A stretch of 64,000 bases of DNA from a virus: positions 15,468-79,467 of IMG/VR virus record IMGVR_UViG_3300045988_123515; one strand, written 5' to 3'. Each line of letters begins with the position of its first letter. Positions within the stretch are counted from its first letter, which is position 1. The translations under genes and the position numbers were made by a program. The notes under the pieces were generated by a model. It was given only the letters and a program-made list of their open reading frames with translations, searched no databases and was not told the DNA's origin. This document shows positions 5,821 through 50,571 of this stretch, one piece after another.

Positions 5821-5822
5821 TT

Positions 5823-21267: not shown

Positions 21268-24200
21268 ATGGCTGAAAATACCATTGATACCCTTGAACTA
21301 CAAATTAGTAGTACAGCGGATGCGGCAGTCAAATCCATTAATAATATGTCCAGGGCATTGCAGAGTGTAAACAATACCATTACTGGTTTGAATTCTCATG
21401 GCTTACGTAGCTACGCAAAAGGTATTGGACAAGTTACCGCAGCTATTCAATCCCTTAATTCTGTAAATACCGGAAACATTGCCAAAGCGGTAACACAGCT
21501 TAAAGCACTAAGCAATATAGATTTTAGTAAATTTGAAAATAAGAAACTGAAAATAGATGTTGAGATTTCTGGTGGTGATGCTGCAAAGAAAATGCAGTAT
21601 GCCATTGAAAAATCTCTTGACCAAACCAAAATCGACACATCCAAAATTTCTGCACAGCTGATTAACGCTTTTGACTTAAAAGGTGGTGCTGCTTCCAGAT
21701 TGAGAAAGCAGATGGAAACGCTGGCAGAACAGCTTACAGCTTCTTTTGATGGAAAATCGTCTTTTAATTCTGGCGAATGGGGAAAAACCTTAGACCAGAT
21801 TGGAAATGATATTGTTAAAAGCGGTAAAACTGCAAGAAGTGAGTTGGGTAGTTATTTGGCAGGAGCGGAGCAGGAATGGATTGATTTTTATGATTTCTTC
21901 AAGAATAAGAAAATCTACGTTTCTGATATGCTTAAAAACGATGTCGGAAAGGGTGAATATCAGGATATTTTAAAGAACAATCTTGGTAATATCACAGTAG
22001 ACCCACTTAAAGGAATTAATCTGGATAAATCATGGAGTGAACTTGCTGATAAATTCCCAACCCTGATTTCACAAGACACAATTAATCAGGCAGATCAGCT
22101 TATTACAGTTCTTGAAACTTTAAAAAAAGTAAGAGATCAGATTAAGCCTATCAGCATTCAGGATTTATCCGGGGATGATTTATCATCTGCACAAAGCAAA
22201 GTATTTAGTCAGGTATCCGATACTGCAAGCCAGATAGGTACAAATATTGCCAAAAACATTCAGGATGCAGCAAAAACAGCAGATGGTCAATTTCCAATTG
22301 ATATTAAAATCAATCAAGATAAGATTGTGCATGATATTAAAAGTGCGATCAGTAAAGCATCTTCAATTACTTATGACCCCGTAAAAGTAACCCTTGATGT
22401 CGATACGAAAGAAATTAAGGATTCGATCAGTCAAAAGTTAAACAGCATTGATGCAGGGCAACTTCCACAAGTATCAGATGGACTTGAAAAAATTAAAAAC
22501 GCTTTGCAGTCAATGGCTGGATTGGATTTAAAGAGCACTGGAATCAATTCCACAATCAATGCTTTACAGAGGCTTGCCAGCACTGATTTGACGAATTTTG
22601 ATACTGCTAAGATATCTGGTATTTCTGATGCTTTATCAAAATTTGCAAATATACCCGACATTTCATTAAGCGTAAATCGTTTAGTTTCCTCTTTGGCTAA
22701 ATTATCTGCATCTGGTGGAAGCATCGGAACCGTAACATCTACTCTTCCTGTACTAGGCGATGCAGTCAGTAAGTTTGTGGCTAATGCATCAAATGCCGGA
22801 GCAGTTTCTGGACAATTAAATACATTTATTGCATCGTTGGCCAAATTAGCAACTGCCGGAAATAAGACTGGGCAAACAGCATCTCAGTTAGATTCCTTGT
22901 CGCAAGCAACATTGAATTTCTTCAACGTGATGAAAAATGCGCCTGAAATAAGTGCGAATACATTACGAATGACAGAAGCACTTGCACAACTGGCAAATTC
23001 GGGAAGTAAAGCGAATACAGCTACTAATATGGTTGCAAGCGGATTTAACCGATTATCTAGTGCAGGCAGAGGAATTACCGGTATTGGCAGTAAAATTGCT
23101 TCTGCGGTTTCCGGAGCAAGTAATTCATTGCTTAGTTATGGTAATACTGCGACAGGCACAGCAAAGAAAACAGGTAATCTGGTATCACGGCTTACCAGTC
23201 TTTATATAAAATTTTTTACGCTTAGTCGAATTATAAAATCTGTTTGGAAATCCGTTTCGTCTGCATCTGATTATGTTGAAACACTCAATTACTTCAACAG
23301 TGCTTTTGACCAAGTGACCGATGGCTTGGACACAAGCGGATGGGAAGATGCAGGAGCAAAATCAGCAGAGGAATATGTAGGCTCTTTTGAGAAACGTGCA
23401 AAAGAATTAACAAAAAAGCTCACCGGATTTGAAGTATCCGACGCAGGTGATCTAATGCGTTCTCAAAGCGGTAGCCTTGGCTTAAACCCTAATGATACGA
23501 TGAATTATCAAGCCACATACGCACAGATGGCATCTTCCATGGGAGCCACTGCCGATAATGCCACAAAACTTTCACAGGTATTAACTGAGATTGGTGGTGA
23601 CCTTGCGTCTGTAAAGAATCTTGACTTTAACGATGTATGGCAAGACATGGCATCCGGTATTGTGGGCATGAGCCGGGCATTGGATAAATACGGAATTAAT
23701 ATCCGTGTCGCAAACTTGCAGCAGGAACTTTACAATCTTGGAATTGATACAACTGTAGCAAAATTGAATCAGTCAGACAAGGCTATTTTAAGAACCATTG
23801 TAATCCTCAATAGTTCAAAATACGCCTGGGCGGACTTAGCTGAAACGATAAATCAGCCCGCTAATCAAGTCCGTATGCTCAAATCAAATTTTGAAGCACT
23901 GGCACGCTCAATTGGTACACTATTATTGCCTATTGTTGCAAAAGTGTTGCCATATTTGAACGGAATTACAATTGCAGTAGAACGAGTATTTTCTGGGATT
24001 GCAAGACTTTTAGGAATCAAACTTTCAGACTATGTATCATCCACAAAAAGTGCATCTATAGACATGGATTCCATGGCAGATGCATCTGATAATGCGGCTT
24101 CTGGGCTTGGAAATGCAGACAAAAACGCAAAGAAATTAAAGAAGTCTCTGTCTGTCTTACCATTTGACGAACTGAATCAGCTGAATAGCGATAAAGATTC

Positions 24201-27200
24201 TAGTGGTAGTTCTTCATCTGGTTCCGGTGGTGCAACACCACATATTCCGGCACTTGATGATGCACTTGCCGATGCTATTTCAAACTATCAAAAGGTTTGG
24301 GATGAAGCATTTGGGGGTATGGAGAATAAGGCTCAACAGGTTGCCAATAAAATTACTGATGCTTTTGAAAAAATCAGAAAAGCAGCAAAACCTACAACCA
24401 ATGCAATCAAAAAATTATGGAATGAGGGGCTTAGTAAGCTCGGTAATTTTTCTATTAATGCATTGAAAAATCTTTGGAAAAATTACTTAAAGCCAATGGG
24501 TAACTGGGTGCTTTCTGACAATTCAGGGCTTCCAAGATTCTTTAAAATTACTAACGACATCCTCAATAAAATCAATTGGTCAAAGCTTCAAACTGTTCTG
24601 AAAAATTTCTTTGAAATGCTTCAAAAACCAACGAAATTTGTCTGGACAGGACTTATGGATTTTTATGAAAATTTCTTAAAACCCATTTCTGCTTGGACAA
24701 TGAATGAAGCTATTCCAAGACTTGTTGACGCACTCACACGATTTGGAAACGCTATTCACTGGGATGAACTGAATGCAGCACTTTCAGATTTTTGGAGTGC
24801 GCTGGCACCGTTCGCTCAAAACGTAGGTGAGGGGCTTGTATCATTCTTTGAAAATCTTCTTAAAATAGGAGCGGATTTCATTAATGATAAGGTTCCGAAT
24901 GGCTTAAAATCCATTTCCGAAGCGTTAAAGAATATTGATCCAGAAACAGCCAAACAAATCGGTGTAGGGCTTGTAAAAGTAGCTGTTGCAATCGCAGGAT
25001 TTAAAGGCCTGACGTTTATCGGTAGCATAATTGGAAAAGATAGTCCTTTAGCAAAAGGTTTAGCATTACTATCTGGGCATCCGTATATCGCTATCGCATT
25101 TGGGTTGGCAGGTGTTGTGGCGGCATTGGATAATTTTGGCATCATAGACGTTGATTGGGAGTGGCTTTCCGGAGAAATTGGCAAGGTCAAAGATGCTATT
25201 TCCAATTTTATTGATAAAGTTGATTGGGATGCAATCGGTACATCAATCGGTAAATTTGCAGATGCATTTGCACCGTTTGCAGCAGGTTTTGCAGATAGTT
25301 TAATTGCTGGATTACAAGGGCTTCTTGATTTAGGTGCAGACCTCTTAAATGCAATCGGTAATGCAATTGGATGGCTGGGTGATGCCCTCGGAAAAGTTGA
25401 TCCAGAAATACTTCAAAAGTTAGGAAATGCGCTTGGTGTATTCGTGGAAGTCAAATTGACTTTTGCTATCGTCAGCAAATTAACAGGGTTAGCTGGAGCA
25501 ATTGTGACTTTTGGAAATTCTTTGGGAAACGGAAAAGTTGCTACCAATACTTCCACATTCGCAAAAACATTAACGCTTTTAAAGGGAGCAATTACTGGTT
25601 TGGCAGTTGGCATGGCTTTGACAGAAGAAACAGTGGGCGAAGCAAAGGATGCGGAAGGCTATGGACAGGACATGGAAAAAGGTTTTTCCTATTTGAGTGC
25701 AGCTGTGGAAGACCTTGGAGTAAAAGCAGGTGTTTCTGATGGACAAATGCAGCAATTGAATAGTCAACTTCAAAGTATGAAAGACCAAGGACTTATATAC
25801 GATCCCTCCGCACTCCAAAATTTTGCAGATAAATTATATGATGCAGGAATTAAAGCGGGAGATTTAAAAGATTCTGCTTTGAATACATCAGAAGTAGTTG
25901 ACCAGTTGCGAATTAGCCTTGGAGATTCTGAAAAAGCAGCTAACTTTGTAGGGAAAAATGGATTCACGTATTTATCTGGTGCGTTAAATTTAATGTATCA
26001 AAAAGGTAAAATAAGTCTTGACCAGTACAAACAATTGAATGAGTATCTAAACACAGAAGATGGTGCTAAAACTGCTGCCGAGAAATATAGGACGCTCTCT
26101 GATAAAATTTCAAAAATGGGAATAAATTCAGATGAACTCTACAATAATATGCCAAGTACCATCGAGTCCGCACTCAATCTTGCTCAAACAAGTATTGACA
26201 ATTTTAATGTATCTCCTGTAGTTGAAGGATTGCAATCGCTTACATCTGAGGCACAAAAAGTAGAATTTGCAAATCTTATAACGCAATCATCAAATGCCAT
26301 TGACGGCATGGGCGGCATCTGGAAAAATGGAAAACAAATCCTGGGTACTGATGCACTTGCTATACACAATGCCATTCAGGCCGGACTAGAGCCGGATAAA
26401 GATGGTTATTATGACCTTGGAAACGGTCAGATGGTACAATACGGTAAATCAATCAAGGACAATAAAGAACCAATCAAATCCACATTAGACGATACCTTGA
26501 AGTCAATACTTACAGACAAAGATCTGATGGGAGAGGGCTACAATCTTATGTATGATATATCCGGATATCATATTGACGGATATGTAGAAGGCATGGCAGG
26601 ATTAGGATATAAAGAGGTTAAGAAAGCTTATGAAGCTGCCTTTAACATAGATCAAAATGTTAAAGATAACACCAAAAAAGATGGAGAATCACTCGCTCGA
26701 AATACCGTTGCAGGATATAACGATTATTTGAAAAAGGATGGAGTGACAAATACTTCTCTTGTTACAGAGCAGTGGGCTAAGCAAGGAATCACTGATCCGG
26801 CAGAAAACAAGCTGGAGATTCATTCTCCATCCAAACTTTTTGCCCGATATGCAGAATATGTCGAAAAAGGCTACTCTGATAAAATCAAGAGCCTTGCGAC
26901 AATAACTGCTGCATCCATGAATACTTGGATTTTACAGGGAATCCAGACACCAATAATTAGTAAACTGAGGATTGAAAAAGGTAGTTCCGGTCTGGCAAGT
27001 GATTATGGCACAGCTTTTGGAAAAGGGTTATCTTCTGGTATACTTGAAACCAAAGATAAAAATGAATCCGCTGTCGGCACAGTTCTCTCCGCATTGAAAA
27101 CCAAGCTGAACACCTACAATACCTCATTTGAGAATATTGGTGGAAAGTACATGAGAAAGCTTAATTCAGGAATCAATTCTGAAAAGAATGATCTTGAAAA

Positions 27201-27735
27201 CAATGTAAAAAACATTACAGGAAGCGTTAAAAGTGCATTTGGTTCTATCCAAGATTCAATGTGGTCATATGGCCATAACGCAATCCAGAATTTTGCCAAC
27301 GGTATCCAATCAGTGCATATCAACCTTCCACACCTTAAAATGGATTATACTGATTGGCAGGATGGCGACAACCATAGATGGCGCTGGAACTCTTCTGTAG
27401 ATTGGTATGCTAAAGGCGGTCTGTTTAATGGCGCACAAGTAATTGGTGTTGGTGAAGCCGGACGAGAAGCTGTTCTTCCTCTGGAAAACCGCCGTACCAT
27501 GAACATGATTGCAGATAGCATTGTATCCAGTTCAGACAATACAATGGGATTGACCAAAGAAGAAATGGCACAAGCTGTAGCCCAAGGAGTTGCCATGGCA
27601 ATGATGAACAACTCTGGAAATAACCCGAAATATATCATGAACAGTATAAATGTCAATGGACGAGAGATTATGAAAGCAGTGACCGAAGCTGAAAACGATG
27701 CTAATTATCGTTTGAATCCGTCACCAGCTTATTGA
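21268..27735 (+). CDS. tail tape measure protein
   Basis: 2155 aa, alpha-helical and repetitive, positioned after G/GT. Confidence 0.9.
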   Translation: MAENTIDTLELQISSTADAAVKSINNMSRALQSVNNTITGLNSHGLRSYAKGIGQVTAAIQSLNSVNTGNIAKAVTQLKALSNIDFSKFENKKLKIDVEISGGDAAKKMQYAIEKSLDQTKIDTSKISAQLINAFDLKGGAASRLRKQMETLAEQLTASFDGKSSFNSGEWGKTLDQIGNDIVKSGKTARSELGSYLAGAEQEWIDFYDFFKNKKIYVSDMLKNDVGKGEYQDILKNNLGNITVDPLKGINLDKSWSELADKFPTLISQDTINQADQLITVLETLKKVRDQIKPISIQDLSGDDLSSAQSKVFSQVSDTASQIGTNIAKNIQDAAKTADGQFPIDIKINQDKIVHDIKSAISKASSITYDPVKVTLDVDTKEIKDSISQKLNSIDAGQLPQVSDGLEKIKNALQSMAGLDLKSTGINSTINALQRLASTDLTNFDTAKISGISDALSKFANIPDISLSVNRLVSSLAKLSASGGSIGTVTSTLPVLGDAVSKFVANASNAGAVSGQLNTFIASLAKLATAGNKTGQTASQLDSLSQATLNFFNVMKNAPEISANTLRMTEALAQLANSGSKANTATNMVASGFNRLSSAGRGITGIGSKIASAVSGASNSLLSYGNTATGTAKKTGNLVSRLTSLYIKFFTLSRIIKSVWKSVSSASDYVETLNYFNSAFDQVTDGLDTSGWEDAGAKSAEEYVGSFEKRAKELTKKLTGFEVSDAGDLMRSQSGSLGLNPNDTMNYQATYAQMASSMGATADNATKLSQVLTEIGGDLASVKNLDFNDVWQDMASGIVGMSRALDKYGINIRVANLQQELYNLGIDTTVAKLNQSDKAILRTIVILNSSKYAWADLAETINQPANQVRMLKSNFEALARSIGTLLLPIVAKVLPYLNGITIAVERVFSGIARLLGIKLSDYVSSTKSASIDMDSMADASDNAASGLGNADKNAKKLKKSLSVLPFDELNQLNSDKDSSGSSSSGSGGATPHIPALDDALADAISNYQKVWDEAFGGMENKAQQVANKITDAFEKIRKAAKPTTNAIKKLWNEGLSKLGNFSINALKNLWKNYLKPMGNWVLSDNSGLPRFFKITNDILNKINWSKLQTVLKNFFEMLQKPTKFVWTGLMDFYENFLKPISAWTMNEAIPRLVDALTRFGNAIHWDELNAALSDFWSALAPFAQNVGEGLVSFFENLLKIGADFINDKVPNGLKSISEALKNIDPETAKQIGVGLVKVAVAIAGFKGLTFIGSIIGKDSPLAKGLALLSGHPYIAIAFGLAGVVAALDNFGIIDVDWEWLSGEIGKVKDAISNFIDKVDWDAIGTSIGKFADAFAPFAAGFADSLIAGLQGLLDLGADLLNAIGNAIGWLGDALGKVDPEILQKLGNALGVFVEVKLTFAIVSKLTGLAGAIVTFGNSLGNGKVATNTSTFAKTLTLLKGAITGLAVGMALTEETVGEAKDAEGYGQDMEKGFSYLSAAVEDLGVKAGVSDGQMQQLNSQLQSMKDQGLIYDPSALQNFADKLYDAGIKAGDLKDSALNTSEVVDQLRISLGDSEKAANFVGKNGFTYLSGALNLMYQKGKISLDQYKQLNEYLNTEDGAKTAAEKYRTLSDKISKMGINSDELYNNMPSTIESALNLAQTSIDNFNVSPVVEGLQSLTSEAQKVEFANLITQSSNAIDGMGGIWKNGKQILGTDALAIHNAIQAGLEPDKDGYYDLGNGQMVQYGKSIKDNKEPIKSTLDDTLKSILTDKDLMGEGYNLMYDISGYHIDGYVEGMAGLGYKEVKKAYEAAFNIDQNVKDNTKKDGESLARNTVAGYNDYLKKDGVTNTSLVTEQWAKQGITDPAENKLEIHSPSKLFARYAEYVEKGYSDKIKSLATITAASMNTWILQGIQTPIISKLRIEKGSSGLASDYGTAFGKGLSSGILETKDKNESAVGTVLSALKTKLNTYNTSFENIGGKYMRKLNSGINSEKNDLENNVKNITGSVKSAFGSIQDSMWSYGHNAIQNFANGIQSVHINLPHLKMDYTDWQDGDNHRWRWNSSVDWYAKGGLFNGAQVIGVGEAGREAVLPLENRRTMNMIADSIVSSSDNTMGLTKEEMAQAVAQGVAMAMMNNSGNNPKYIMNSINVNGREIMKAVTEAENDANYRLNPSPAY

Positions 27736-28005: not shown

Positions 28006-29082
28006 ATGAGAAAAGAACAGTCTATTTCCGAAAAAAGAGAACGAGATTTCACGGGTGTTTTTATACCTTCACGATTATATCTTACGAATAAATTCAGCCC
28101 TAGAGAAAAATTTTTATTAGTAGAAATATATAGTCTTCGCAAGAAAGATAAAAATGGAGATTGTTTTGCAAGTAATCGGCATTTCGCGGATTTTATTGGT
28201 GTATCTGAGCGTACTGTCCAGTCAATGCTTAATGGATTAAAAACAGAGGGATATGTAGAAGCATGGTATGAATATGAAAAAGAGAACCCGAAAGTTATTC
28301 ATTGTAGACACCTTGTTTTGACAGAAAAATTTTATGAAGAATTTATTAATGAACATGAGATAAAACAATCTTCTGAACAAGGTGAGAAAAAACACATGGG
28401 GGACGGTGAGGAAAAACGCACCTCCCGTGGTGAGGAAATCTGCATGTATAAGTATAACAAGAGAATAAGTATAACAGAAGAAAAGAATACAGATAAAAAC
28501 TGTATTTTATCAAATACAGAAAAAGAGACTTTACCAAGTGCTGGTAAAGACAATCAGACTTCTGCTCCTAATAATTATAATAAATTAAATATATATAATA
28601 TACCCCCTAGAACAAAGGAGCAGAAAGCCAACCGTTATAATACCAGGAACCAATCATCCCTCTTTGATTATAAAGACGAGGATGTTGAGAATTTGGTAAC
28701 CGAGATATACGAAAGTATTTACGGAGCCAAGGAGAATATTTTTGAAGACCACGACATTTGCCTGTCCATATTTTTGATTACAGAGTTTTTTAAGAAATAT
28801 CAAAAGTACCGTGAAGAGAAACATCCGATGGTTACGCAAAATCAAGCAGAAAATATTCTGAAAATGATTCGTAACCCAGATACAGACATGGCGAAAGATG
28901 ATTTGGTGGACGATAAAGAAGAACCGCTGGTTTATCTTGAAATGATGGAAGAACACTTTAAAACCAAGTGGGGGAAGAAAAATGGTGGTGATTTCAATTA
29001 TCGTATTATGCTGTTTTTTAAGGATACCACGCAGAACCTGTTGTACCAAAGAGTGAAACATAAAAGGGAGGACGCACTATGA
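28006..29082 (+). CDS. winged-HTH DNA-binding protein (DnaD-N/replication-initiator-like N-terminus) with an N/K/E-rich tail
   Basis: FSPREKFLLVEIYSL...FASNRHFADFIGVSERTVQSMLNGLKTEGYVE. Confidence 0.4.
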   Translation: MRKEQSISEKRERDFTGVFIPSRLYLTNKFSPREKFLLVEIYSLRKKDKNGDCFASNRHFADFIGVSERTVQSMLNGLKTEGYVEAWYEYEKENPKVIHCRHLVLTEKFYEEFINEHEIKQSSEQGEKKHMGDGEEKRTSRGEEICMYKYNKRISITEEKNTDKNCILSNTEKETLPSAGKDNQTSAPNNYNKLNIYNIPPRTKEQKANRYNTRNQSSLFDYKDEDVENLVTEIYESIYGAKENIFEDHDICLSIFLITEFFKKYQKYREEKHPMVTQNQAENILKMIRNPDTDMAKDDLVDDKEEPLVYLEMMEEHFKTKWGKKNGGDFNYRIMLFFKDTTQNLLYQRVKHKREDAL

Positions 29083-31039: not shown

Positions 31040-33877
31040 ATGAGAAGTATTTCAAGCGATTTTAAAAATGAGCAAGATTCCGGGAATAGAAATTATCTAA
31101 AGTATGCAGATGTAACACTAATTGATGGAACAGTATTTAATTTCACAAATAAGGAATTATGGCAAAATGGTCTGTCGTTTGAAAGTGATACATCCAATTC
31201 AGGGAGTTTTGACATCGGGTCTGCAATGATAAGTAAGCTTACTTTGCAAATTAACAATTTTGATGGGACGTACTCAAAATATGATTTTAACAACGCTAAA
31301 GTTGTGGCATATGTTGGATTGCAACTCACGGATAGAATAGAAAAAATAAAAATCTGTACAGCCACAGTAACAGATGCACCATATCAGAACAATGTAATCC
31401 TGTCGCTTACGTGCGAAGATAACATGGCAAAATTTGACCGTGATTATTCTGAAAGCAAACTGATATATCCGGCAACCAGATTGCAGATTGTTCAGGATAT
31501 TTGCTCTGTTTGTGGTGTTTCTTTGCAAACAACATCTTTTGCAAATAGTGATTATATCGTTCCTGAACGTCCAGAGGATGAAAACCTTACGTGCAGACAA
31601 GTTTTAGCATGGGTGGCGCAGATTGGATGCCAGTGGGCTAAATGTGATGCAGATGGAAAACTTAATATTGGATGGTACAAAACAGAACCACTTGATTCTG
31701 ACTATATCAGCATTGAGCATACTAATGGCTTTACACCATATTTGGATGATGTTGTAATTACAGGGATCCAGGTTACTGAATACCTGAAATCAAATTCATC
31801 TGAGAAAAAAGCAAAATCATACCTATATGGAAAAACAGGATACGTGCTGAGCATCAGTGATAATAAATTAATTCCAGAGGGCACTGGCGAAACAGTAGCA
31901 TCTATGATTGGCCAGAAATGTATTGGAATGTCTTTTAGACCGTTTACAGCCCAATGCTTGACAGATATATCACTGGAAGAGGGAGATCCGGTAAAAATCA
32001 TATCCAGAGATGGAACAGAATACAAAAGTTATCTTACATCTGTTAGATTACAGCCTGGTACATTTGAGGACATATCTTGTGAAGCCAAAAGTCCGGCAAG
32101 GAACAGCCGAAAGCAATACTCGTTACTATCACAAGCAATGGTAGAAGCTAGGCAATCCGTACACCAGGAAAAGACAGCAAGAGAACTAGCAATTGAACAG
32201 CTTGGACAAAAAATAGAAGAATCATCTGGTGTGTATACAACTGTTGTAAAACCAGAAACAGGCGGTAATATCTATTATTTGCACAATAGACCCAAACTAG
32301 AAGATTCTGATATGGTGTGGAAAATGACCGCAGAAGCATGGGGAGTGTCTACTTCTAAAGATTCAGACGGTAATTTTATCTGGAATGCCGGAATGACAGT
32401 GGATGGAGATACCATTGTTCGTATTTTGACTGCAACCGGAGTAAATGCAGACTGGATTAACGCAGGTGAAATCCTTGTGAAGGACAATAACGGTAATACT
32501 ATTTTCTCTGTCAATATGGACACAAAATCCGTATATATTGATGGTTCTTCCGTGACTATCGGTGGGAAGCCTCTTGAGCAGACGTTATCCGAACTTAACA
32601 GCAAAATTTCTGACAGTTTGCCAATAGCAATGTCTTTAACCTGTGATTTTAAAGGGATTACAGTAGATGCAGATGGAAATTATGAAACATTTCCAGACGG
32701 GATTTCAACTTCCCCAATAGTGGTTTTAGGGGCACAGGATATTACAGCAAATTGTGCTTATACAATCACAAAATCAGATTCAATTACTGGAACATGGAAC
32801 AATGCTACAAGAACATACACGGTTACTGGATTGACTGCTGATGATGGATGGGTGGATATCAGGGCAACATATCTGACCAATATTATTATCACAAAACGTT
32901 TTTCGGTATCTAAGGTGTACAGTGGGCAGAGCGGCGTAACATACGGATTAATGACTTCAAGCCCAATTATCAAAAAAACGTCACAATCAGAACTAACACC
33001 AACATATGTTGATTTTACGGCATATTACACAATTGGAAAAGACATGACAAAATATTTTCTCAATGGCCGGTTTGTTATTGAAGAAGTATTGAATGATGAT
33101 GGTGTATGGAGAACGGTATACACCAGTACACAGGATGAATCAGAAGTGCGCCGGTCGCTGTATACGGTTCTGACTACCAAGGATGGAAAAGTCCCTGTAA
33201 CAAAAGACGGAAAATATGCGCTTGGATATTCCCGGAATGTTACCTCTATCAGATGCAGGTTCTATGCAGCAGGCGGTACAACTCAGCTTCTGGGAGAACA
33301 GACATGTGCTGTTGTAGCAGATGCAACCGCTCAGCTGTCACAGTCAGATATCGTTGAGATATTAAGTGATGGCGGTAGGTGGAACGGACTGTATTACATT
33401 GATGGCAAGTTGTATATTTCATTCAGTGCGATGCTTGGTGGGGCACTTACACTTGGTGGAGCTAATAACGGAAACGGTCTGTTAAGACTATTAGATGAAA
33501 ATGGAGATACAATAGCTACATTGGATTCTTCAGGTGCAAGTTTTACAGGACAATTCGTAAATAGAAAAGGCAAAGAATGGATAAAAATTCTGGATTCTAT
33601 CATAACATCAGGATATGACGAATATGTAGATGGTCGTATTGATCTATCAGCACAGTATGGGGATGGGACAAGAAAAGTAGTTTTGGAATCTCTGACAAGT
33701 GATCTTGTGCTGAAAAGCGCAAGTGGGAAAATTCTCACAGGCGATGGAAGGGCTCTGATTGGAACAGATGTTTCAGGAGTGTATATATCAGAAATAAGCT
33801 ATATGGATGATGTTGAAACAGGAGAAAGAAGCATAATTTTTACATTTAGTGATGGAACAGTAAAAACTCTTGCATAA
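31040..33877 (+). CDS. tail-associated (Tal / prophage tail endopeptidase-like) baseplate protein
   Basis: 945 aa, assigned by position after the Dit-like gene. Confidence 0.6.
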   Translation: MRSISSDFKNEQDSGNRNYLKYADVTLIDGTVFNFTNKELWQNGLSFESDTSNSGSFDIGSAMISKLTLQINNFDGTYSKYDFNNAKVVAYVGLQLTDRIEKIKICTATVTDAPYQNNVILSLTCEDNMAKFDRDYSESKLIYPATRLQIVQDICSVCGVSLQTTSFANSDYIVPERPEDENLTCRQVLAWVAQIGCQWAKCDADGKLNIGWYKTEPLDSDYISIEHTNGFTPYLDDVVITGIQVTEYLKSNSSEKKAKSYLYGKTGYVLSISDNKLIPEGTGETVASMIGQKCIGMSFRPFTAQCLTDISLEEGDPVKIISRDGTEYKSYLTSVRLQPGTFEDISCEAKSPARNSRKQYSLLSQAMVEARQSVHQEKTARELAIEQLGQKIEESSGVYTTVVKPETGGNIYYLHNRPKLEDSDMVWKMTAEAWGVSTSKDSDGNFIWNAGMTVDGDTIVRILTATGVNADWINAGEILVKDNNGNTIFSVNMDTKSVYIDGSSVTIGGKPLEQTLSELNSKISDSLPIAMSLTCDFKGITVDADGNYETFPDGISTSPIVVLGAQDITANCAYTITKSDSITGTWNNATRTYTVTGLTADDGWVDIRATYLTNIIITKRFSVSKVYSGQSGVTYGLMTSSPIIKKTSQSELTPTYVDFTAYYTIGKDMTKYFLNGRFVIEEVLNDDGVWRTVYTSTQDESEVRRSLYTVLTTKDGKVPVTKDGKYALGYSRNVTSIRCRFYAAGGTTQLLGEQTCAVVADATAQLSQSDIVEILSDGGRWNGLYYIDGKLYISFSAMLGGALTLGGANNGNGLLRLLDENGDTIATLDSSGASFTGQFVNRKGKEWIKILDSIITSGYDEYVDGRIDLSAQYGDGTRKVVLESLTSDLVLKSASGKILTGDGRALIGTDVSGVYISEISYMDDVETGERSIIFTFSDGTVKTLA

Positions 33878-33900
33878 TTAATTAAAGGAGGCACAGAACA

Positions 33901-34401
33901 ATGGCAACAAGCTTTGAACCAATTAAATTTGCAAATTTGACAGAAAAGACAACCGCACCGTCTGATGCAGACATTATTGTGATCGAGGATTCCACGGCAA
34001 CCAAGAAAGCAAAATGGAGCAACCTGATAAGCTGGATTAAAACCAAACTAAATATCGGGTCAGCTGATATTTCCAGTATTGGTGACGGAACAGTGACAGG
34101 AGCAATAAATACGCTAAACACGAAGATAGACCTAAAAGGAACTTATCGGGCAAATGTGCCTGCCGTTGTTGCAGGAAACTTTGTGGGATTTCCATTTATT
34201 TCAATTCCTAACGCCAATTTATATAATATTGAGATCACGGAAATCGCTATATTCGGCGGTGCTGATAAACCACATTTCGGTTGGAATATCTCCAAAAGTA
34301 AATTAGGGATTGGAATTGAAACAAACAATTCTGATGCTGCGTTCTATTTTGGTACAACGCATCCGAATTGTTTTTGGACATTAACAATTAAGATATCATA
34401 G
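33901..34401 (+). CDS. tail fibre / receptor-binding tip protein, currently expressed C-terminal variant A
   Basis: 166 aa. The inverted-repeat crossover site lies at codons 73-76 (NTKI). Confidence 0.55.
   Translation: MATSFEPIKFANLTEKTTAPSDADIIVIEDSTATKKAKWSNLISWIKTKLNIGSADISSIGDGTVTGAINTLNTKIDLKGTYRANVPAVVAGNFVGFPFISIPNANLYNIEITEIAIFGGADKPHFGWNISKSKLGIGIETNNSDAAFYFGTTHPNCFWTLTIKIS
34116..34128 (+). repeat. left inverted repeat of the invertible segment
   Basis: AAACACGAAGATA. The exact reverse complement is at 34704-34716. Confidence 0.85.
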
Positions 34402-34403
34402 TG

Positions 34404-34694
34404 TTATTGAACCCCATATACAGTTATCTGCCGCCCAGAACCACCGATATATAATCCGACCTGTATGTCGCTATTATAACAAGCATAACATTTGATTGTA
34501 TCGTACTCACTTAACATTGCAGTGCGGTTTGTACTATTACAAGTTTTAAAAATGCTGATCGGATAGATCGCGGGTGGGAATTGAGACATATTTCCGTCAT
34601 TGATGCAGAATATAATGTATCTGTACTGCGTTAATGATGGAACATTAAAATTCATCCATGCGCCAGCAGTAGTTGTGGCAACTAACTGTACCAT
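34404..34694 (-). CDS. promoterless alternative fibre C-terminal cassette (variant B)
   Basis: No RBS is present. Upstream of its ATG the frame stays open through the right inverted repeat, reading QNTKI-NAS-MVQL in the same NTKI codon phase as the + strand fibre ORF. Confidence 0.55.
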   Translation of the reverse strand: MVQLVATTTAGAWMNFNVPSLTQYRYIIFCINDGNMSQFPPAIYPISIFKTCNSTNRTAMLSEYDTIKCYACYNSDIQVGLYIGGSGRQITVYGVQ

Positions 34695-34703
34695 AGACGC
34701 ATT

Positions 34704-34716
34704 TATCTTCGTGTTT
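34704..34716 (-). repeat. right inverted repeat of the invertible segment
   Basis: TATCTTCGTGTTT on the + strand. Confidence 0.85.
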
Positions 34717-34753
34717 TGTGAATTAACAAACCACCTCCTACATTCTAAAATGT

Positions 34754-35773
34754 TTGTGGGAGGTGATCTTTATGACAGACATACGAAACACAATAATTAA
34801 TAACGTGCTACAGGCGGTACAGCCATTGCTAGATAGTCAGCAATTACAGGCTGTACAGGACGCACTCTGCATCCAGCTTGGCAATTGTGAAGTGCAGGAA
34901 AGGCACACGGAAATAACTGTAACAGATAATACGCCAGATGCAATGCTGGCCAGATATGTTGCCACAAAACGGATAGAGGGCAAGGCGGAATCTACTATCA
35001 AACGGTATCGTGATATCTGTTATATGATGATACATACCATATGCAAGCCTTTGCATGAGATTACAACCTATGATCTCAGATTCTATTTGGCAACTTATAA
35101 AGAGCACAGAAAAGTAAGCAACTGCACACTGGATGGAATGCGAAGATGTTTCGGCAGCTTCTTTTCATGGTTGTCTGCTGAGGGAATGATCGGAAGGAAT
35201 CCATGTGCAGCGCTGACACAGATCAAGTACACAAAAATAATGAAAAAGCCGTACTCTGCCCCTGAAATGGAGCGCCTGAAACAGGCATGTACATCCATCA
35301 GAGATCTTGCATTGATAGATTTCCTGTACGCTTCCGGATGCAGGGTATCAGAGGTAGTGCGACTTAACAGGACAGATATTAATTTCCAGACGCAAGATGC
35401 AGTAGTTTTGGGCAAAGGAAACAAAGAGAGGAAAATCTATCTCACTCCTGTAGCACTTATGCATCTGCAAGATTATCTGAATACACGGACGGATACGGAT
35501 CCGTGCCTATTTGCAAGCCTGAGAGCACCGCATAAGCGATTGTCAAAAGCAGGGATTGAGAGAACGCTAAAGAAGCTTGGGGAGAGCGCTAAAGTTACAA
35601 ACGTACATCCTCACAGGTACAGGAGGACACTGGCAACCAATCTGTTAGACCGGGGAGCCAACATACAAGATGTGGCATCAGTCCTTGGCCATGCCGATCT
35701 TAAGACTACTCAAGTATATTGCTATATCAGTCAGAGCAACGTGAGAGCATCGTACAATAGATATACTGCATAA
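34754..35773 (+). CDS. tyrosine recombinase (XerC/D- or Rci-like): candidate fibre invertase and/or integrase
   Basis: ASGCRVSEVVRL (catalytic R), HPHRYRRTLATNLL (HxxR) and LGHADLKTTQVYCY (H, Y) motifs. Confidence 0.85.
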   Translation: MWEVIFMTDIRNTIINNVLQAVQPLLDSQQLQAVQDALCIQLGNCEVQERHTEITVTDNTPDAMLARYVATKRIEGKAESTIKRYRDICYMMIHTICKPLHEITTYDLRFYLATYKEHRKVSNCTLDGMRRCFGSFFSWLSAEGMIGRNPCAALTQIKYTKIMKKPYSAPEMERLKQACTSIRDLALIDFLYASGCRVSEVVRLNRTDINFQTQDAVVLGKGNKERKIYLTPVALMHLQDYLNTRTDTDPCLFASLRAPHKRLSKAGIERTLKKLGESAKVTNVHPHRYRRTLATNLLDRGANIQDVASVLGHADLKTTQVYCYISQSNVRASYNRYTA

Positions 35774-35879
35774 CATACAAATCCAATTTTTACTCTGGGG
35801 AGTGCTCCAGAGTTGTTGTTGTGCCTGAAAATAGAAAACGAATGTTGATGCAAGAACAACGAGAAAAGAGGTATCTAAC

Positions 35880-37301
35880 TTGGAAATAAAAGGAATTGAT
35901 GTGTCAAGCTATCAAAAGAAACCAGACTGGAAGAAAGTGAAACAATCAGGTGTGAAATTTGCAATATTGCGGATTCATCAACGCTCAGGGATTGATGCTA
36001 GCTTTGAGCACAATTACAAAGGGTGCTGTGATAATGGTATTCTGGTTGGTGGTTATAAACTAAGCTATGCAACCACTGTCGCAGAAGCTGAAAAAGAAGC
36101 CAATGAAACTTTGGCAGTATTAAAAGGACGAAAACTTGATTTTCCTATCTTTTATGACCTGGAATGGGAAACACAAAGAAAATTTAGCAAGTCCAAACTT
36201 GAAGCAATTACTTTAGCATTTTTACGTAAAATCCATTCTGCCGGATACAGGGTGGGAATTTACAGTAACGTAGATTGGTTCAATAATTTGTTCACACCAG
36301 CAATGAGGGATTATGATTGCTGGATTGCAAGGTATCCGGCAACTGATAATGGCAAAATCGTTGAACGCCTTAGACCAGCGCAAGGAATTGGCTGGCAGTA
36401 TTCCAGTAAAGGAAAAGTCCCAGGAATTGATGGTAATGTTGATATGGATGTATTTTACAAAGACTACAGGGATACAGAAACGAAAGGGGATGTAAGTGAA
36501 ATGACAAAGAAAGAAGCGATTAATAAAGTGTTGTCTGTCGCAAAAGCAGAGATCGGATATCTCGAAAAGAAAAGCAACAGTCAGCTTGACAGCAAGACTG
36601 CCAACGCCGGAAGTAGAAATTACACCAAATATTGGCGTGATGTAAAGCCGTCCTATCAGGGACAGCCTTGGTGTGCATGTTTTGTCTCATGGTGCTTTAT
36701 GAAAGCATTTGAGCAAGATAAAGCAAAGAAATTATTGAGACATTGGCCATATGTTTATTGTCCAACATTAGGGAACCTTTTTGTAAAGAATGCTAATCCG
36801 AAAGTTGGTGATATTGTCATTTTTTACCACGGTGGAAGATTTACTCATACTGGAATTGTAACATCGGTAAACGGTGACAAATTTTCAACAGTTGAGGGCA
36901 ATACTTCCGGGGCATCAGGAATTATCCCGAATGGCGGTGGTGTCTGTGCAAAAAGCTATTTAAACAGCAAATTGCCGGGAACAAAATTCTGTACGCCGGA
37001 TTGGAGTATTGTAGCCGATACATCTACGGATAATTCAGGAAATACAGCGGCTACAAAAGAAGATTCTAAACCGTCTAAAACGCCTAAGTTTGTCGGTAAG
37101 GTTACTGCTAATTCCCTTAATGTCCGTACATGGGCAGGAACAGAAAACGCAAAGCTTAAAAGCTATCCTATGCTTGCAAAAGGGAATCTGATTGATGTAT
37201 GCGATACAGTTAAATCCAAAGACGGGAATCCTTGGTACTACATCCGTATTGCCGGAAAGTATTTCGGATTTGTATCTGCAAAATATATTAAAAAAGCGTA
37301 A
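35880..37301 (+). CDS. endolysin: GH25 muramidase, CHAP and SH3b domains
   Basis: N-terminus IKGIDVSSYQ..DW..VK..GVKFAILR (GH25). Central QPWCACFVSW...HTGIV (CHAP Cys/His). C-terminus LNVRTWAGT...GNPWYYI (SH3b). TTG start. Confidence 0.85.
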   Translation: MEIKGIDVSSYQKKPDWKKVKQSGVKFAILRIHQRSGIDASFEHNYKGCCDNGILVGGYKLSYATTVAEAEKEANETLAVLKGRKLDFPIFYDLEWETQRKFSKSKLEAITLAFLRKIHSAGYRVGIYSNVDWFNNLFTPAMRDYDCWIARYPATDNGKIVERLRPAQGIGWQYSSKGKVPGIDGNVDMDVFYKDYRDTETKGDVSEMTKKEAINKVLSVAKAEIGYLEKKSNSQLDSKTANAGSRNYTKYWRDVKPSYQGQPWCACFVSWCFMKAFEQDKAKKLLRHWPYVYCPTLGNLFVKNANPKVGDIVIFYHGGRFTHTGIVTSVNGDKFSTVEGNTSGASGIIPNGGGVCAKSYLNSKLPGTKFCTPDWSIVADTSTDNSGNTAATKEDSKPSKTPKFVGKVTANSLNVRTWAGTENAKLKSYPMLAKGNLIDVCDTVKSKDGNPWYYIRIAGKYFGFVSAKYIKKA

Positions 37302-37763: not shown

Positions 37764-38570
37764 ATGGCAGATTTAAAGGTTATCGAAAATGAATTAGTTC
37801 CTGTGTACGAGACAAGTACAGGAGAAAAAGTTGTGTATGGTTCAGAATTACATAAAGTATTAGAAGTAAAAAGCCGTTATCGTGAATGGATTGAAAGAAG
37901 ATTCGCTGATATTGAAGCCACAGAGAATGAAGATTTTCAAGCCGCCGAAATTTCGGCACCTTCTGGACAGACCAAGAAAGATCACATTATCAAACTTGAC
38001 ACCGCAAAAGAAATGGCAATGCTTGAGCGCAACGACAAAGGGAAACAGGTTCGCAAGTATTTCATCCAAGTGGAAGAGAAATATAAACAGACAGCAATTA
38101 ATATCAATCAGCTGTCCCCAGAATTGCAAATGTTCAATCAGATTTTTCAGCAAGTAGCTAAGACTGAACTGGAACAGAAAAAACTTGCGGAACGTGCCGA
38201 CCAACAAGAGAAGAATATGAAAACCATCATTGATACTTTCAAGGGGACGGATTCTGATGTTGGCACAGAAAAGTGGGTGAACAGATGTATTTCAAAGATT
38301 GCCGAGAGTGACGATTTCTCTTACTCGTTCGGAAATAAATACGCCGCCGCCAGAAATGAAAGCTATCGCAGACTGACAGACAGAGCTGGTTGCCGTTTAG
38401 ATCAGCAACTTAGAAATGCGATTTCAAGAGCCGAGGAAAGAGGTTGCACTAAAGCACAGACCAGCCAGATTAACAAGTTGTCTGTGATTATGCAGAATAA
38501 GCGGTTGAAAGATATTTATGTTAGTGTGATTAAAGAAATGATGATTGCATACAGAGTAGAAATTGCATAA
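37764..38570 (+). CDS. antirepressor-like protein (AntA N-terminal plus ORF6C-like C-terminal domain)
   Basis: LVPVYETSTGEKVVYGSELHKVLEVKSRYREWIERR. The C-terminus is paralogous to that of 40065..40874 (RAGC.L...LRN....E.GCTK). Confidence 0.65.
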   Translation: MADLKVIENELVPVYETSTGEKVVYGSELHKVLEVKSRYREWIERRFADIEATENEDFQAAEISAPSGQTKKDHIIKLDTAKEMAMLERNDKGKQVRKYFIQVEEKYKQTAININQLSPELQMFNQIFQQVAKTELEQKKLAERADQQEKNMKTIIDTFKGTDSDVGTEKWVNRCISKIAESDDFSYSFGNKYAAARNESYRRLTDRAGCRLDQQLRNAISRAEERGCTKAQTSQINKLSVIMQNKRLKDIYVSVIKEMMIAYRVEIA

Positions 38571-40064: not shown

Positions 40065-40874
40065 ATGGGCGGATTAATACACATCGGAAATTCAGATATT
40101 TCCATAAAAGAGTATAACGGTCAGCGAGTGGTTACATTCAAAGACATTGATGCAGTTCACGGCAGACCAGACGGAACAGCAAGGAAGCGTTTTAATGATA
40201 ATCGCAATCGTTTCATTGAGGGAGAGGATTTTTTCAAAATTAGCGCGTCCGAAATTCGGACAACCAAATTATTTGACATTCCAGACAAGGCAACTTCTGA
40301 TTATGCCCTTATGACAGAACAAGGATATCTAATGTTAGTAAAGTCTTTCACAGATGATTTAGCATGGGATGTTCAGAGACAGCTTGTGAATGGATATTTC
40401 AAAACCAGAGAAAAAGTAAAAAAGGCATTGTCACCGGAACTTCAAATGTTACAGGGACTACTTTCACAAATGGTAGAGAAAGAACTTGCTGACAAGGAAA
40501 GAGACCGGCAGATTTTAATTGCCAAAGAAACAGCAGATAAAGCTGTTGCAACTACAGAGAATATTAAAGAAGCAGTCAAACCAGTATTTGATAACTGGCG
40601 TTCAGAAATCAATTTGAAATTCAATCGTATACAGAAATGTGCAGGAGCAGAGTTCAAAACGCTCCGGTCAGAAATGTATCAAGAATTGGAATATCGGGCT
40701 GGATGTGATTTGAGTACCAGGTTGAGAAACAAACGTAATCGCATGGTGGAAAACGGATGCACAAAGACGGCGGTTAATGCACTCAACAAAATGGATATCA
40801 TTGACGATGATAAAAAGTTACGAGAGATTTTCTCGAAGATTGTAACTGAATATGAAATTAAATATTGTGCGTAG
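40065..40874 (+). CDS. ORF6N/ORF6C (KilA-N-related) antirepressor-like protein
   Basis: YNGQRVVTFKDIDAVHGRPDGTARKRFNDNRNRFIEGEDFFKI. Confidence 0.7.
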   Translation: MGGLIHIGNSDISIKEYNGQRVVTFKDIDAVHGRPDGTARKRFNDNRNRFIEGEDFFKISASEIRTTKLFDIPDKATSDYALMTEQGYLMLVKSFTDDLAWDVQRQLVNGYFKTREKVKKALSPELQMLQGLLSQMVEKELADKERDRQILIAKETADKAVATTENIKEAVKPVFDNWRSEINLKFNRIQKCAGAEFKTLRSEMYQELEYRAGCDLSTRLRNKRNRMVENGCTKTAVNALNKMDIIDDDKKLREIFSKIVTEYEIKYCA

Positions 40875-48843: not shown

Positions 48844-49449
48844 ATGAACAATAAAGAAATTTTACAGAAAGCAAAGGAACTCGTTGAACTGTTGGAAAAA
48901 CAGGAAGAAGCTGGCAAGGTTGCACTGTCAACATTGAATCCTGGTGATGTGTTCCAAACCACCGGAAAACGCAAATACAAGGTTCTGGAACAGTATGGAG
49001 ATACAACGAAAATTATTTCGCTTGATCTGGTGAAAGAAAATGTGAGATTCGGAGACAACACGGATTACAACAAATCAAATGTAAAGAAATTGTGTGATAC
49101 AGAAATCTTAAAGGATTTTGAGAAAGAATTTGGTGCTGAAAGCATCGAAGAGCATACGGTAGATATTATTACCGCGGATGGACAGAAAGTAGGAAACACT
49201 GAATGTAAAATCCGTCCGATTACATTTGATGAAGCACGAGAATACACAGATATTACACCGAATAAGAAGTTGAACGACTGGTATTGGACACTATCACCGT
49301 GGTCAACGGAAGAACGTGGATGGAAGAACTGTTTAGCCGTTGTTTCCCCTTCGGGCGATTTCTTCAGGCTCAGTTACGTCATTGTAAACGGTGTTCGCCC
49401 AGTTTGTATCTTAAAATCTAATATCTTTGTATCTAAGGTGGAGGAATGA
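48844..49449 (+). CDS. DGR target protein 1 (C-terminal variable ligand-binding fold, DUF6273/CLec-like)
   Basis: WYWTLSPWS...AVVSPSGDFFRLSYVIVNGVRPVCIL. No signal peptide. Confidence 0.8.
   Translation: MNNKEILQKAKELVELLEKQEEAGKVALSTLNPGDVFQTTGKRKYKVLEQYGDTTKIISLDLVKENVRFGDNTDYNKSNVKKLCDTEILKDFEKEFGAESIEEHTVDIITADGQKVGNTECKIRPITFDEAREYTDITPNKKLNDWYWTLSPWSTEERGWKNCLAVVSPSGDFFRLSYVIVNGVRPVCILKSNIFVSKVEE
49337..49401 (+). repeat. VR1
   Basis: Versus TR it has 11 substitutions at TR adenines plus 1 at a T. Confidence 0.9.
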
Positions 49450-49451
49450 AA

Positions 49452-50051
49452 ATGAAGAAAAATCTGAAATATTTTGAAGATGAATTATCCAGATTAAGTA
49501 AAGAGTTTACGGAATTCAAGAAAAAGCACATCGGAAAGCCGGAAATCGGAAAAGCTATTGAACTTGCAGGTATGGAATGGCTGATTCTGGATAAGACAGA
49601 AAAAGGATATTTTGCCATTTTGAATGGATTTGATGGAAAAGAAAGAACATTTGATTCAGATTCAAATAACTGGATTTCGAGTAAACTGAGAAATGAGTTA
49701 AATACTCGTTTTCTTAAAAAAATTACGGACGAGTTGGGAGAAGATGCAGTTGTTGAGTTTGATCGTGATTTGCTTTCTTTGGACGGGCAGACAGAATATG
49801 GACATTGTAAAGATAAGATTTCGTTTTTGACGGTGGATGAATACCGGAAATACAGAAAACTTCTTCCAAATATGAGCGAATGGTGGTGGCTTATTACTCC
49901 ATGGAGTACACCAGCAAATAATTACAGTACAATAATTGCCGTTGTTTCCCCTTCGGGCATTATCTACGGGAGCGGTTACTACGGTGGGGACGGTGTTCGC
50001 CCAGTTTGTATCTTTTCTTCTTCAATCTTTGAATCAGGAAGTGATGATTGA
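49452..50051 (+). CDS. DGR target protein 2 (paralogue)
   Basis: WWWLITPWS...AVVSPSGIIYGSGYYGGDGVRPVCIF. The start was chosen 7 nt after GGAGG. Confidence 0.8.
   Translation: MKKNLKYFEDELSRLSKEFTEFKKKHIGKPEIGKAIELAGMEWLILDKTEKGYFAILNGFDGKERTFDSDSNNWISSKLRNELNTRFLKKITDELGEDAVVEFDRDLLSLDGQTEYGHCKDKISFLTVDEYRKYRKLLPNMSEWWWLITPWSTPANNYSTIIAVVSPSGIIYGSGYYGGDGVRPVCIFSSSIFESGSDD
49939..50003 (+). repeat. VR2
   Basis: Versus TR it has 12 substitutions at TR adenines plus the same T-to-G change. Confidence 0.9.
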
Positions 50052-50422
50052 TGGCGAATGAAGATTTAAAGGTAATAACAAAGGCCAAGCAACTTGCAAA
50101 GCATACATTAATAGTTACGAGTAATGCCAGACGCTACCCAAAGAAATACAGGTTTTCACTGGTAGATAAAATGCAGAACAAAGCTCTTGAAATATATGAG
50201 ATGCTTTTTGAAGCCAACAGAACCGACTTGAAAGATTATAAAAGAGAGCGCTTGGAACTCCAAACAAGAGCAATTACTCACTGCGATGAACTGATGTATT
50301 TTATAGAACTTTCATATGAATTAGGAATTATCAATTCTGGCGGAATGGAAGCCTGGTCGCAAATGGTTAAGGACATAAAGTACATGACTATTTCGTGGAG
50401 GACTAAAGACAGGAACAGATAA
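50051..50422 (+). CDS. avd: accessory variability determinant (Avd-like four-helix bundle)
   Basis: 123-aa basic helical protein between the targets and the TR. Sequence ITKAKQLAKHTLIVTSNARRYPKKYRFSLVDKMQ. Confidence 0.7.
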   Translation: MANEDLKVITKAKQLAKHTLIVTSNARRYPKKYRFSLVDKMQNKALEIYEMLFEANRTDLKDYKRERLELQTRAITHCDELMYFIELSYELGIINSGGMEAWSQMVKDIKYMTISWRTKDRNR

Positions 50423-50447
50423 TTTTACAGGTTGTGCACTGCGAATA

Positions 50448-50512
50448 CCGTTGTTTCCCCTTCGGGCAATATCAACAGTAACAATTACAACAATGAAAAC
50501 GGTGTTCGCCCA
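50448..50512 (+). repeat. DGR template repeat (TR)
   Basis: The core reads AAT ATC AAC AGT AAC AAT TAC AAC AAT GAA AAC, with 19 adenines in 33 nt. It is non-coding, and ORF 50432..50746 across it is spurious. Confidence 0.9.
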
Positions 50513-50571
50513 ACATGGATCACATGCAGACAGAGTAAGCATAAAGCTGAAATCAGTAAAGATACAAGCAA

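Follow-up and report, generated by a model that had tools for sequence, protein, structure and literature searches.

Can a phage exchange the C-terminal domain of one of its tail proteins by turning round a few hundred nucleotides of the gene, and is the recombinase encoded alongside the enzyme responsible? This question is raised by positions 33901-35773 of a 64,000-nucleotide stretch of viral DNA (IMG/VR virus record IMGVR_UViG_3300045988_123515, positions 15,468 to 79,467 of that record; hereafter "the window", meaning the whole 64-kb stretch), where two short inverted repeats and two convergent open reading frames (ORFs) lie beside a tyrosine recombinase gene. The first-pass annotation, made from the letters alone, had proposed that the recombinase flips the segment between the repeats and swaps the C-terminal domain of a tail-fibre protein. 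The analysis reported here makes it very probable that the locus is a recombinase-driven inversion switch of a protein's C-terminal domain, the evidence being a naturally occurring 175-residue fusion, exact breakpoints, isogenic pairs of opposite orientation and linked recombinase homologues. The locus is the smallest form of a shufflon, and four-site shufflons of one family are frequent among the phages and prophages of Lachnospiraceae, Blautia included; judged from sequence comparison, the window is a reduced, two-cassette member of this four-site, four-cassette family.

The 601-bp segment and its two orientations

The switch gene is an ORF of 166 amino acids (aa) on the plus strand (33901-34401), within which a core of 13 base pairs (bp), AAACACGAAGATA, occupies 34116-34128 and coincides with codons N73-T74-K75-I76. 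Its perfect reverse complement stands at 34704-34716, and the inverted repeat as a whole matches over 21 nucleotides (nt) at 86%, or about 19/23 with two extra bases; the positions, the extended match and the placement on the N-T-K-I codons all agree with the first-pass annotation. With one mismatch or fewer, the core occurs at only these two places in the 64 kb (0.13 expected). The two crossover sites (s1 on the plus strand, s2 on the minus strand) bound an invertible segment of 601 bp (34116-34716) and divide the gene into a constant part (aa 1-76; 33901-34128, plus strand), an N-terminus shared by relatives, and a cassette, C1 (34129-34401, plus strand). As read from the ORF and an in-silico splice, C1 contributes a 90-aa C-terminal domain with its stop codon and is the cassette expressed in the present orientation.

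The opposite strand carries a silent alternative, C2 (34404-34703, minus strand), which encodes a 99-aa C-terminal domain and a stop codon in a frame that is open from site to stop and has no start context of its own. The 96-aa ORF that had been noticed here (34694-34404, minus strand) converges on the switch gene and ends 2 nt from the plus-strand stop. By reading the sequence, its ATG is preceded by no AGGAGG-like stretch and nothing resembling a ribosome-binding site, and its frame remains open upstream through s2 as QNTKI-NAS-MVQLV (...QNTKINASMVQLV...), just as originally described. Inversion of 34116-34716 in silico gives a protein of 175 aa (76 + 99 aa), with the junctions ...AATACGCTAAACACGAAGATAAATGCGTCTATGG... 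(constant part to C2) and ...TTCACAAAACACGAAGATAGACCTAAAAGG... (reciprocal), which bears out the expectation that a flip would join the constant 76 aa to a 99-aa C-terminus in place of the 90-aa one. The outer flank of s2 resembles the flank on the recombinase-promoter side in two relatives, L007 and L020.

The flipped form exists in nature. On an exact-sequence look-up, the cluster of the 96-aa ORF was found to contain 175-aa proteins as well, and one of these, P0019, is the predicted fusion except for the substitution T47S, a variant that unflipped alleles, P0004 among them, carry as well. P0019, in which C2 is expressed as part of the 175-aa fusion, is encoded by six loci (L001-L006) from six samples, obtained with several assemblers on contigs of up to 17 kb. 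Aligned to the window, these loci match 33883-34128 in the forward direction and 34116-34724 in reverse at 99-99.5% (the invertible segment itself being 99-100% identical, reversed, behind a forward upstream flank); the breakpoints are the two cores, because the forward and reverse matches meet there. The comparison of related assemblies recommended in the first-pass annotation thus recovered the flipped form, inverted exactly at the cores, and every inversion breakpoint seen in relatives falls on the core. Two pairs are nearly isogenic. L001 and L008 show 0 mismatches over 6228 bp of upstream flank, and their 601-bp segments, which lie in opposite orientations, are 100% identical, while L003 and L013 differ at 2 positions in 2.5 kb, with the cassette pair and the recombinase gene separately inverted. 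With such sequence identity, these inversions are recent and do not reflect ancient mosaicism.

It might be objected that flipped contigs are assembly artefacts of the inverted repeat. Several of the contigs carrying the locus are indeed short, and L004 ends at a core; however, the k-mers given in the contig records (k113, k141) exceed the 13 bp of the repeat, the flipped form occurs in at least six samples assembled by different programs and lies within contigs of up to 17 kb, and the genome of a cultured strain (L020) displays yet another state of the shufflon. An artefact of this kind is scarcely credible.

Two further repeats near the segment deserve mention. One, an inverted repeat of 27 nt (81% complementary; 34195-34221 and 34299-34325), lies inside C1; no relative has a breakpoint there and it is probably incidental. 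The other, aaaacgaatgttgatg at about 35838-35860 downstream of the recombinase gene, was considered as a remnant third site and rejected, since its alignment to the core needs three gaps and the same sequence precedes the lysin gene in L010, which has no recombinase.

The recombinase and the four-site family

The enzyme presumed to be the invertase of the segment is a Xer-like tyrosine recombinase of 333 aa (34772-35773, plus strand; Phage_integrase 4.5e-33, Phage_int_SAM_4 7.3e-8). Its ATG at 34772, which is the start in the public 333-aa gene call and is preceded by GGGAGGTG, lies 55 bp from s2; the distance of 38 bp given in the first-pass annotation has to be corrected, as it fits only an in-frame TTG at 34754. 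The protein consists of a SAM-like core-binding domain and a tyrosine-recombinase catalytic domain, with the first 56 aa matching nothing. Residues R191, K215, H281, R284, H307 and Y316 align with the catalytic residues of XerD (1a0p), namely R148, K172, H244, R247, H270 and Y279, and all six are present. The best matches are Xer models and structures; nevertheless, the protein does not belong to the XerC/XerD/XerA class of chromosome-dimer resolvases, because its scores lie below the curated equivalog cut-offs (XerA, 208.7 bits against 220; XerC, 166 against 335; XerD, 158 against 330); its gene, moreover, is carried by phages and stands between shufflon sites. No model of an arm-type DNA-binding domain matched it in Pfam or NCBIfam scans and the gene stands between tail and lysis genes, so that it does not resemble an integrase of the lambda Int type. 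Nor is it a serine invertase of the Gin/Cin/Min/Pin/Hin group, since every Pfam match it has belongs to the tyrosine recombinase family. Consensus scans place a promoter-like TTAACA-17-TAAAAT at 34723-34751 (plus strand), between s2 and the ATG and outside the invertible segment, as well as a terminator-like hairpin at 35792-35813 (plus strand); the same hairpin follows the gene in relatives.

Relatives were gathered by homology to the recombinase and by homology to the 166-aa protein, the latter search giving 77 clusters. In the Lachnospiraceae relatives, homologues of the recombinase are consistently flanked by sites and cassettes. The full arrangement can be seen in L007, in the order constant N-terminus, s1 (+), C1 (rightward), C2 (leftward), s2 (-), recombinase (leftward), s3 (+), C3 (rightward), C4 (leftward), s4 (-) and holin, while the window has two sites only and is without C3 and C4. 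All the inversion products that the four sites should yield are observed. Inversion between s1 and s2 separates L001 from L008, that between s3 and s4 (the distal cassette pair) separates L050 from L054, and that between s2 and s3, by which the recombinase gene is flipped, separates L003 from L006 and L013 as well as the window from L007. The whole array is inverted, with the N-terminus fused to C4, in a prophage of the Blautia ammoniilytica Sanger_23 genome (L020). In L039 and L043 the cassettes are permuted among the same four outer flanks, with 0 mismatches over the 3-kb shufflon and flanks that are 97% identical.

A deletion form is found in L011, L001 and L002, where the left flank of s2 runs directly into the right flank of s4, the changeover falling precisely on TATCTTCGTGTTTT (L001 6790-6970 and L011 4056-4235, against L007 6790-8745) and the recombinase, C3 and C4 are missing. 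Such a junction looks like the product expected of deletion between directly oriented sites. The recombinase gene is likewise absent from L010, a phage of the window's own type (tail protein 98% identical).

The pool of exchangeable domains is large. At least 12 C-termini of 75-101 aa, unrelated to one another, occur behind one N-terminus (83-99% identity), and the junction is constant in relatives (LNTK followed by I, or LNT followed by N in the case of C3). Other Lachnospiraceae phages have different constant regions (...AQLKEALGINAL followed by NT..., ...VAKNLQDQITAQ followed by NTKI...), together with a shared core and recombinases that are 52-92% identical. Across 60 loci, the core has the consensus C[A/T]AAACA[C/T]GAAnAT (the pattern search having fixed AACA[CT]GAA and left the surrounding positions free), every silent cassette is open and in phase with the N-T-K/N codons, and about 30 cassette clusters were distinguished, although the pattern search may have let in a few spurious ones. 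Furthermore, shufflon DNA is 99.5-100% identical where the flanking tail genes are 94-97% identical (L039/L043, window/L001 and L007/L020), as if the module were passed between phages, or preserved, without regard to the backbone. Because the same core and related recombinases recur across different constant regions, and because of this difference in identity between shufflon and backbone, one may imagine that the shufflon goes beyond switching within one genome and forms a shared exchange system among Lachnospiraceae phages. It is conceivable, if rather doubtful, that the conserved core and a trans-acting recombinase let co-resident phages and prophages trade cassettes from the pool of about 30 families and yield recombinase-less "locked" derivatives by direct-site deletion, with the window enzyme perhaps also serving genome maintenance.

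The same difference in identity might be taken to mean that modules move between backbones by general or illegitimate recombination between related phages, that is, by mosaic exchange of tail modules to which the recombinase is unrelated. This is very improbable. All breakpoints lie on one core of 13-14 bp, less than homologous recombination requires; the four flanks stay fixed while the cassettes change places among them; in pairs of loci separated by 0-2 substitutions, one or two inversions account for the difference in arrangement; and the linkage of recombinase and site holds across homologues of 52-92% identity that have different constant regions.

The first-pass annotation had further suggested that the enzyme might serve as both integrase and invertase, no other integrase being visible in the window. 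The latter statement holds among the scanned plus-strand ORFs of at least 170 aa (35 proteins), none of which is another tyrosine, serine or DDE recombinase; the ORFs at 5808-6392, 8378-9013, 9140-9766 and 10149-11183 were not scanned directly, and their counterparts in L071 carry no recombinase annotation. A relative, L072, likewise has no integrase in the 8.7 kb upstream. The enzyme could on this basis also, or mainly, be the phage integrase, acting at an attP elsewhere, but the dual role found no positive support and is unlikely. The window covers all but around 15 kb of the 79.5-kb source contig; the protein is without a recognised arm-type DNA-binding domain, and the core is found nowhere else in the window. 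Integrated prophages beside cotJ genes (L001, and L076 in a Blautia isolate) do without the recombinase gene, the Terrisporobacter phage TPELB_ph1 encodes, besides a homologue located between tail and holin genes, a distinct integrase of 528 aa, and in relatives there are shufflon sites on either side of the recombinase gene, which is itself found inverted. Invertase of the adjoining segment remains the role presumed for the enzyme.

Observations on more distant homologues and on integration sites may be added. TPELB_ph1 (L074; PP197244, 17645-18640) and the Clostridium phage phiCp-D (L075; MW478291, 21639-22616) encode Xer-like recombinases of 31-33% identity in the same position between tail and holin genes, annotated as "integrase". 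A comparable inverted repeat was sought in TPELB_ph1 and in the C. perfringens phage phiCp-D, and only AT-rich noise was obtained. In prophages of the holin/amidase type, the phage sequence stops about 40-70 bp past the amidase gene, beside Mn-catalase/cotJB/cotJA, as can be seen in the Blautia sp. isolate GCA_040929965.1 (L076, 10001-12700) and in the metagenome contig L001 (6001-9300); these ends point to a Blautia host and a conserved integration locus.

The switch protein and the weight of the evidence

The switch gene is situated between a 945-aa protein at the end of the tail module (31040-33877, plus strand; phrog_6616 "tail protein", E 8e-176) and an endolysin at the start of the lysis module (35880-37301, plus strand), in which family searches identified GH25 and CHAP domains. 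In relatives, the preceding gene, which encodes a tail protein of 1060-1078 aa and matches Peptidase_S74 weakly, runs into the start of the switch gene. Both forms were modelled, as had been recommended for the two C-termini. In form A (166 aa), the N-terminus is modelled with low confidence, as is the helix that follows at aa 65-75, and from aa 80 onward the chain is predicted to fold as a beta-sandwich at a pLDDT of 90-96, while form B (175 aa) is predicted with the same layout at lower confidence (mean pLDDT 58.5). Since the models place the helix at aa 65-75 before the head, the crossover site is predicted to lie at the boundary between neck and head. Among BFVD structures, form A matched an uncharacterised siphovirus protein (E 7e-7) and a "baseplate component" (E 3e-5); form B matched several tail-fibre proteins at E values of about 1e-3 and TM-scores of 0.3-0.4, which are mere hints because of the low confidence of that model. 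The fold search with form A gave no match to the heads of lactococcal receptor-binding proteins. Searches of GenBank phage DNA with 33000-36500 returned only weak matches, to the lysin region, and searches of GenBank phage proteins with the 166-aa protein returned nothing, so that no annotated close relative was found there.

With these elements the following course of events can be proposed. The product would be a small structural protein at the end of the tail module, made up of a 76-aa N-terminus (the presumed anchor in the tail tip), a short helix and an exchangeable beta-sandwich head of about 90-100 aa. An inverted core in the same phase fronts the silent, start-less second head cassette on the other strand. 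By bringing the two cores together, the Xer-like recombinase would turn round the 601 bp that separate them, splicing the constant part either to head C1 (166 aa) or to head C2 (175 aa). Only the joined cassette would be translated, giving one head type per genome and virion and both types in the population. The swap of heads would probably alter the host surface structure that is bound; the heads are presumed to bind receptors, which would be the best reading of the function of the protein.

A number of observations weigh against the proposal of an inversion switch acting on a tail-fibre protein. The window contains three perfect inverted repeats of at least 13 bp within 1 kb, compared with a mean of 1.9 in first-order Markov simulations of the window that served as the chance expectation; the 13-bp repeat was rejected as statistical evidence by itself, and because the repeat alone lies within chance, codon phase and the comparative data carry the case. 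The 175-aa form with the window's T47 is absent from the searched collection, and the two orientations were not found together in one sample among the contigs retrieved, flipped and unflipped forms coming from different samples. L001 and L002 are flipped yet without the recombinase, so that these two were flipped either before the gene disappeared or by an enzyme supplied in trans. As to the protein, neither the 166-aa form nor the silent cassette has a significant match in Pfam, PHROGs or NCBIfam, none of the folds in the Protein Data Bank (PDB) is significantly similar to form A despite the confidently modelled head (best E 0.078), and the BFVD matches are modest, at TM-scores of 0.3-0.5. 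The label "tail fibre" given in the first-pass annotation agrees with the position of the gene and finds no echo in these family and PDB searches; position and weak fold matches lend weak support to a putative tail-fibre or receptor-binding role.

Some of the same facts could be explained if the switch were a fossil in the window phage, that is, if the family inverts or has inverted while this two-cassette copy is now fixed, having lost the second cassette pair and possibly factors needed for activity. The flipped form of the exact window allele is not on record, C3 and C4 are missing from a locus with two sites only, and L017 (ERR1776111), from another sample, is 100% identical to the window and has the same orientation. 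Against this stand two perfect cores, a recombinase ORF that is intact with all its catalytic residues, a silent cassette that has kept an intact open frame, and the occurrence elsewhere of near-identical two-cassette segments in both orientations. A fossil is for these reasons decidedly unlikely, and in the preferred interpretation, that of a functional switch, inversion probably still occurs in the window phage.

Some further features of the window may be noted. Three genes of the antirepressor type are present (Bro-N/ANT, 1509-2216; AntA, 37764-38570; ORF6N, 40065-40874). A 358-aa HTH_36 protein (28006-29082) lies between a 2155-aa ORF (21268-27735), which by its size and position is probably the tape measure, and the distal tail genes, an odd site for a DNA-binding protein. 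The diversity-generating retroelement (DGR) noticed in the first-pass annotation was located at 48844-51636, with a reverse transcriptase (50572-51636; RVT_1), an A-rich template repeat (about 50447-50544) and variable repeats (49336-49433 and 49938-50035) at the 3' ends of two tandem DUF6273 ORFs.

Relation to known switches and significance for gut phages

Inversion of the variable C-terminus of a tail-fibre gene with a constant N-terminus, with a change in host range and expression of the joined cassette only, is a feature shared with the G segment of Mu (Gin), the C segment of P1 (Cin), Min of p15B and Pin of e14. Those systems employ serine invertases with an enhancer and Fis and co-invert a chaperone gene, whereas the present locus has a tyrosine recombinase, each cassette amounts to one small domain, and no accessory gene goes with it. 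In the R64/IncI shufflon, the tyrosine recombinase Rci acts at multiple short asymmetric sites and swaps the C-terminal segment of the adhesin PilV, which sets partner specificity; that target is a plasmid pilus gene and not a phage tail gene, rci lies outside the shufflon, and the sfx sites and Rci belong to another lineage, so the likeness is functional only. Inverting type I restriction-modification hsdS loci place convergent pairs of half-gene cassettes on both sides of a tyrosine recombinase gene and carry short inverted repeats that keep the reading frame, but their target is a DNA-specificity subunit in bacterial chromosomes and not a virion protein. A survey covering such loci is available (PMC9881135).

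The comparison with Mu and R64 drawn in the first-pass annotation is apt; the Rin shufflon, which it did not name, is closer (PMC6109161). Described from prophages of Bifidobacterium breve and Bifidobacterium longum, Rin was presented as the first phage-encoded invertase of the tyrosine family to act on a receptor-binding-protein gene, at 11-bp rix sites (Mavrich et al., 2018; PMC6109161), and a Rin-type shufflon was later reported in Eggerthella lenta prophages (PMC8778435). Surveys of gene-altering inversions have found tail-fibre genes and tyrosine recombinases to be enriched (PMC9881135). Both systems have a phage-encoded, XerD-like tyrosine recombinase without an arm-binding domain, the target of Rin being a receptor-binding-protein gene; both combine a constant N-terminal part with promoterless, variable C-terminal cassettes, and in both the short crossover repeats (11 bp in Rin, 13 bp here) lie at the 5' ends of the cassettes and, in phase, inside the expressed gene. 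Inversions were detected by comparison of genomes in either case, the alternative orientations with breakpoints at the repeats being seen here between assemblies. In addition, deletion between direct sites was raised as a problem for Rin (PMC6109161), and a natural product of that kind occurs here.

The differences are equally clear. The hosts of Rin phages are Actinomycetota and those of the present family Bacillota (Lachnospiraceae), and the rix core TTCCCTAACCC is unrelated to AAACACGAAGATA. Moreover, rin stands at the end of its array, whereas in the four-cassette relatives the recombinase gene is nested, and itself flipped, between convergent cassette pairs, and the window holds two cassettes only. 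The likeness to Rin is one of function; of the 30 GenBank phage records that match the recombinase at E <= 1e-20, none gives a Bifidobacterium phage in its listed organism or host. The mechanism is already known in other phages and its principle is established, and the locus is a well-supported further example; no description of this Lachnospiraceae shufflon was found in literature searches.

The locus extends the tyrosine-recombinase shufflon from prophages of Actinomycetota to phages of Bacillota. For annotation and metagenomics, it is of practical consequence that gene callers break the silent cassettes into "hypothetical" ORFs, that the invertase is labelled "XerD" or "integrase", and that flips will confound host-range prediction and strain tracking from metagenomes. 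A catalogue of at least 12-30 heads that can be exchanged on one scaffold constitutes a natural toolkit for the retargeting of phages, and the natural deletion products illustrate a route by which systems of this kind decay and become locked. The human gut abounds in Blautia and other Lachnospiraceae, whose phages are poorly characterised, and the locus offers a sequence-defined way in which these phages can keep several tail tips, and probably several receptor specificities, per genome. The family is widespread in these abundant gut bacteria and draws on a large pool of cassettes, and in the window phage, where a DGR co-occurs with the inversion switch, it is one of two independent diversification devices.

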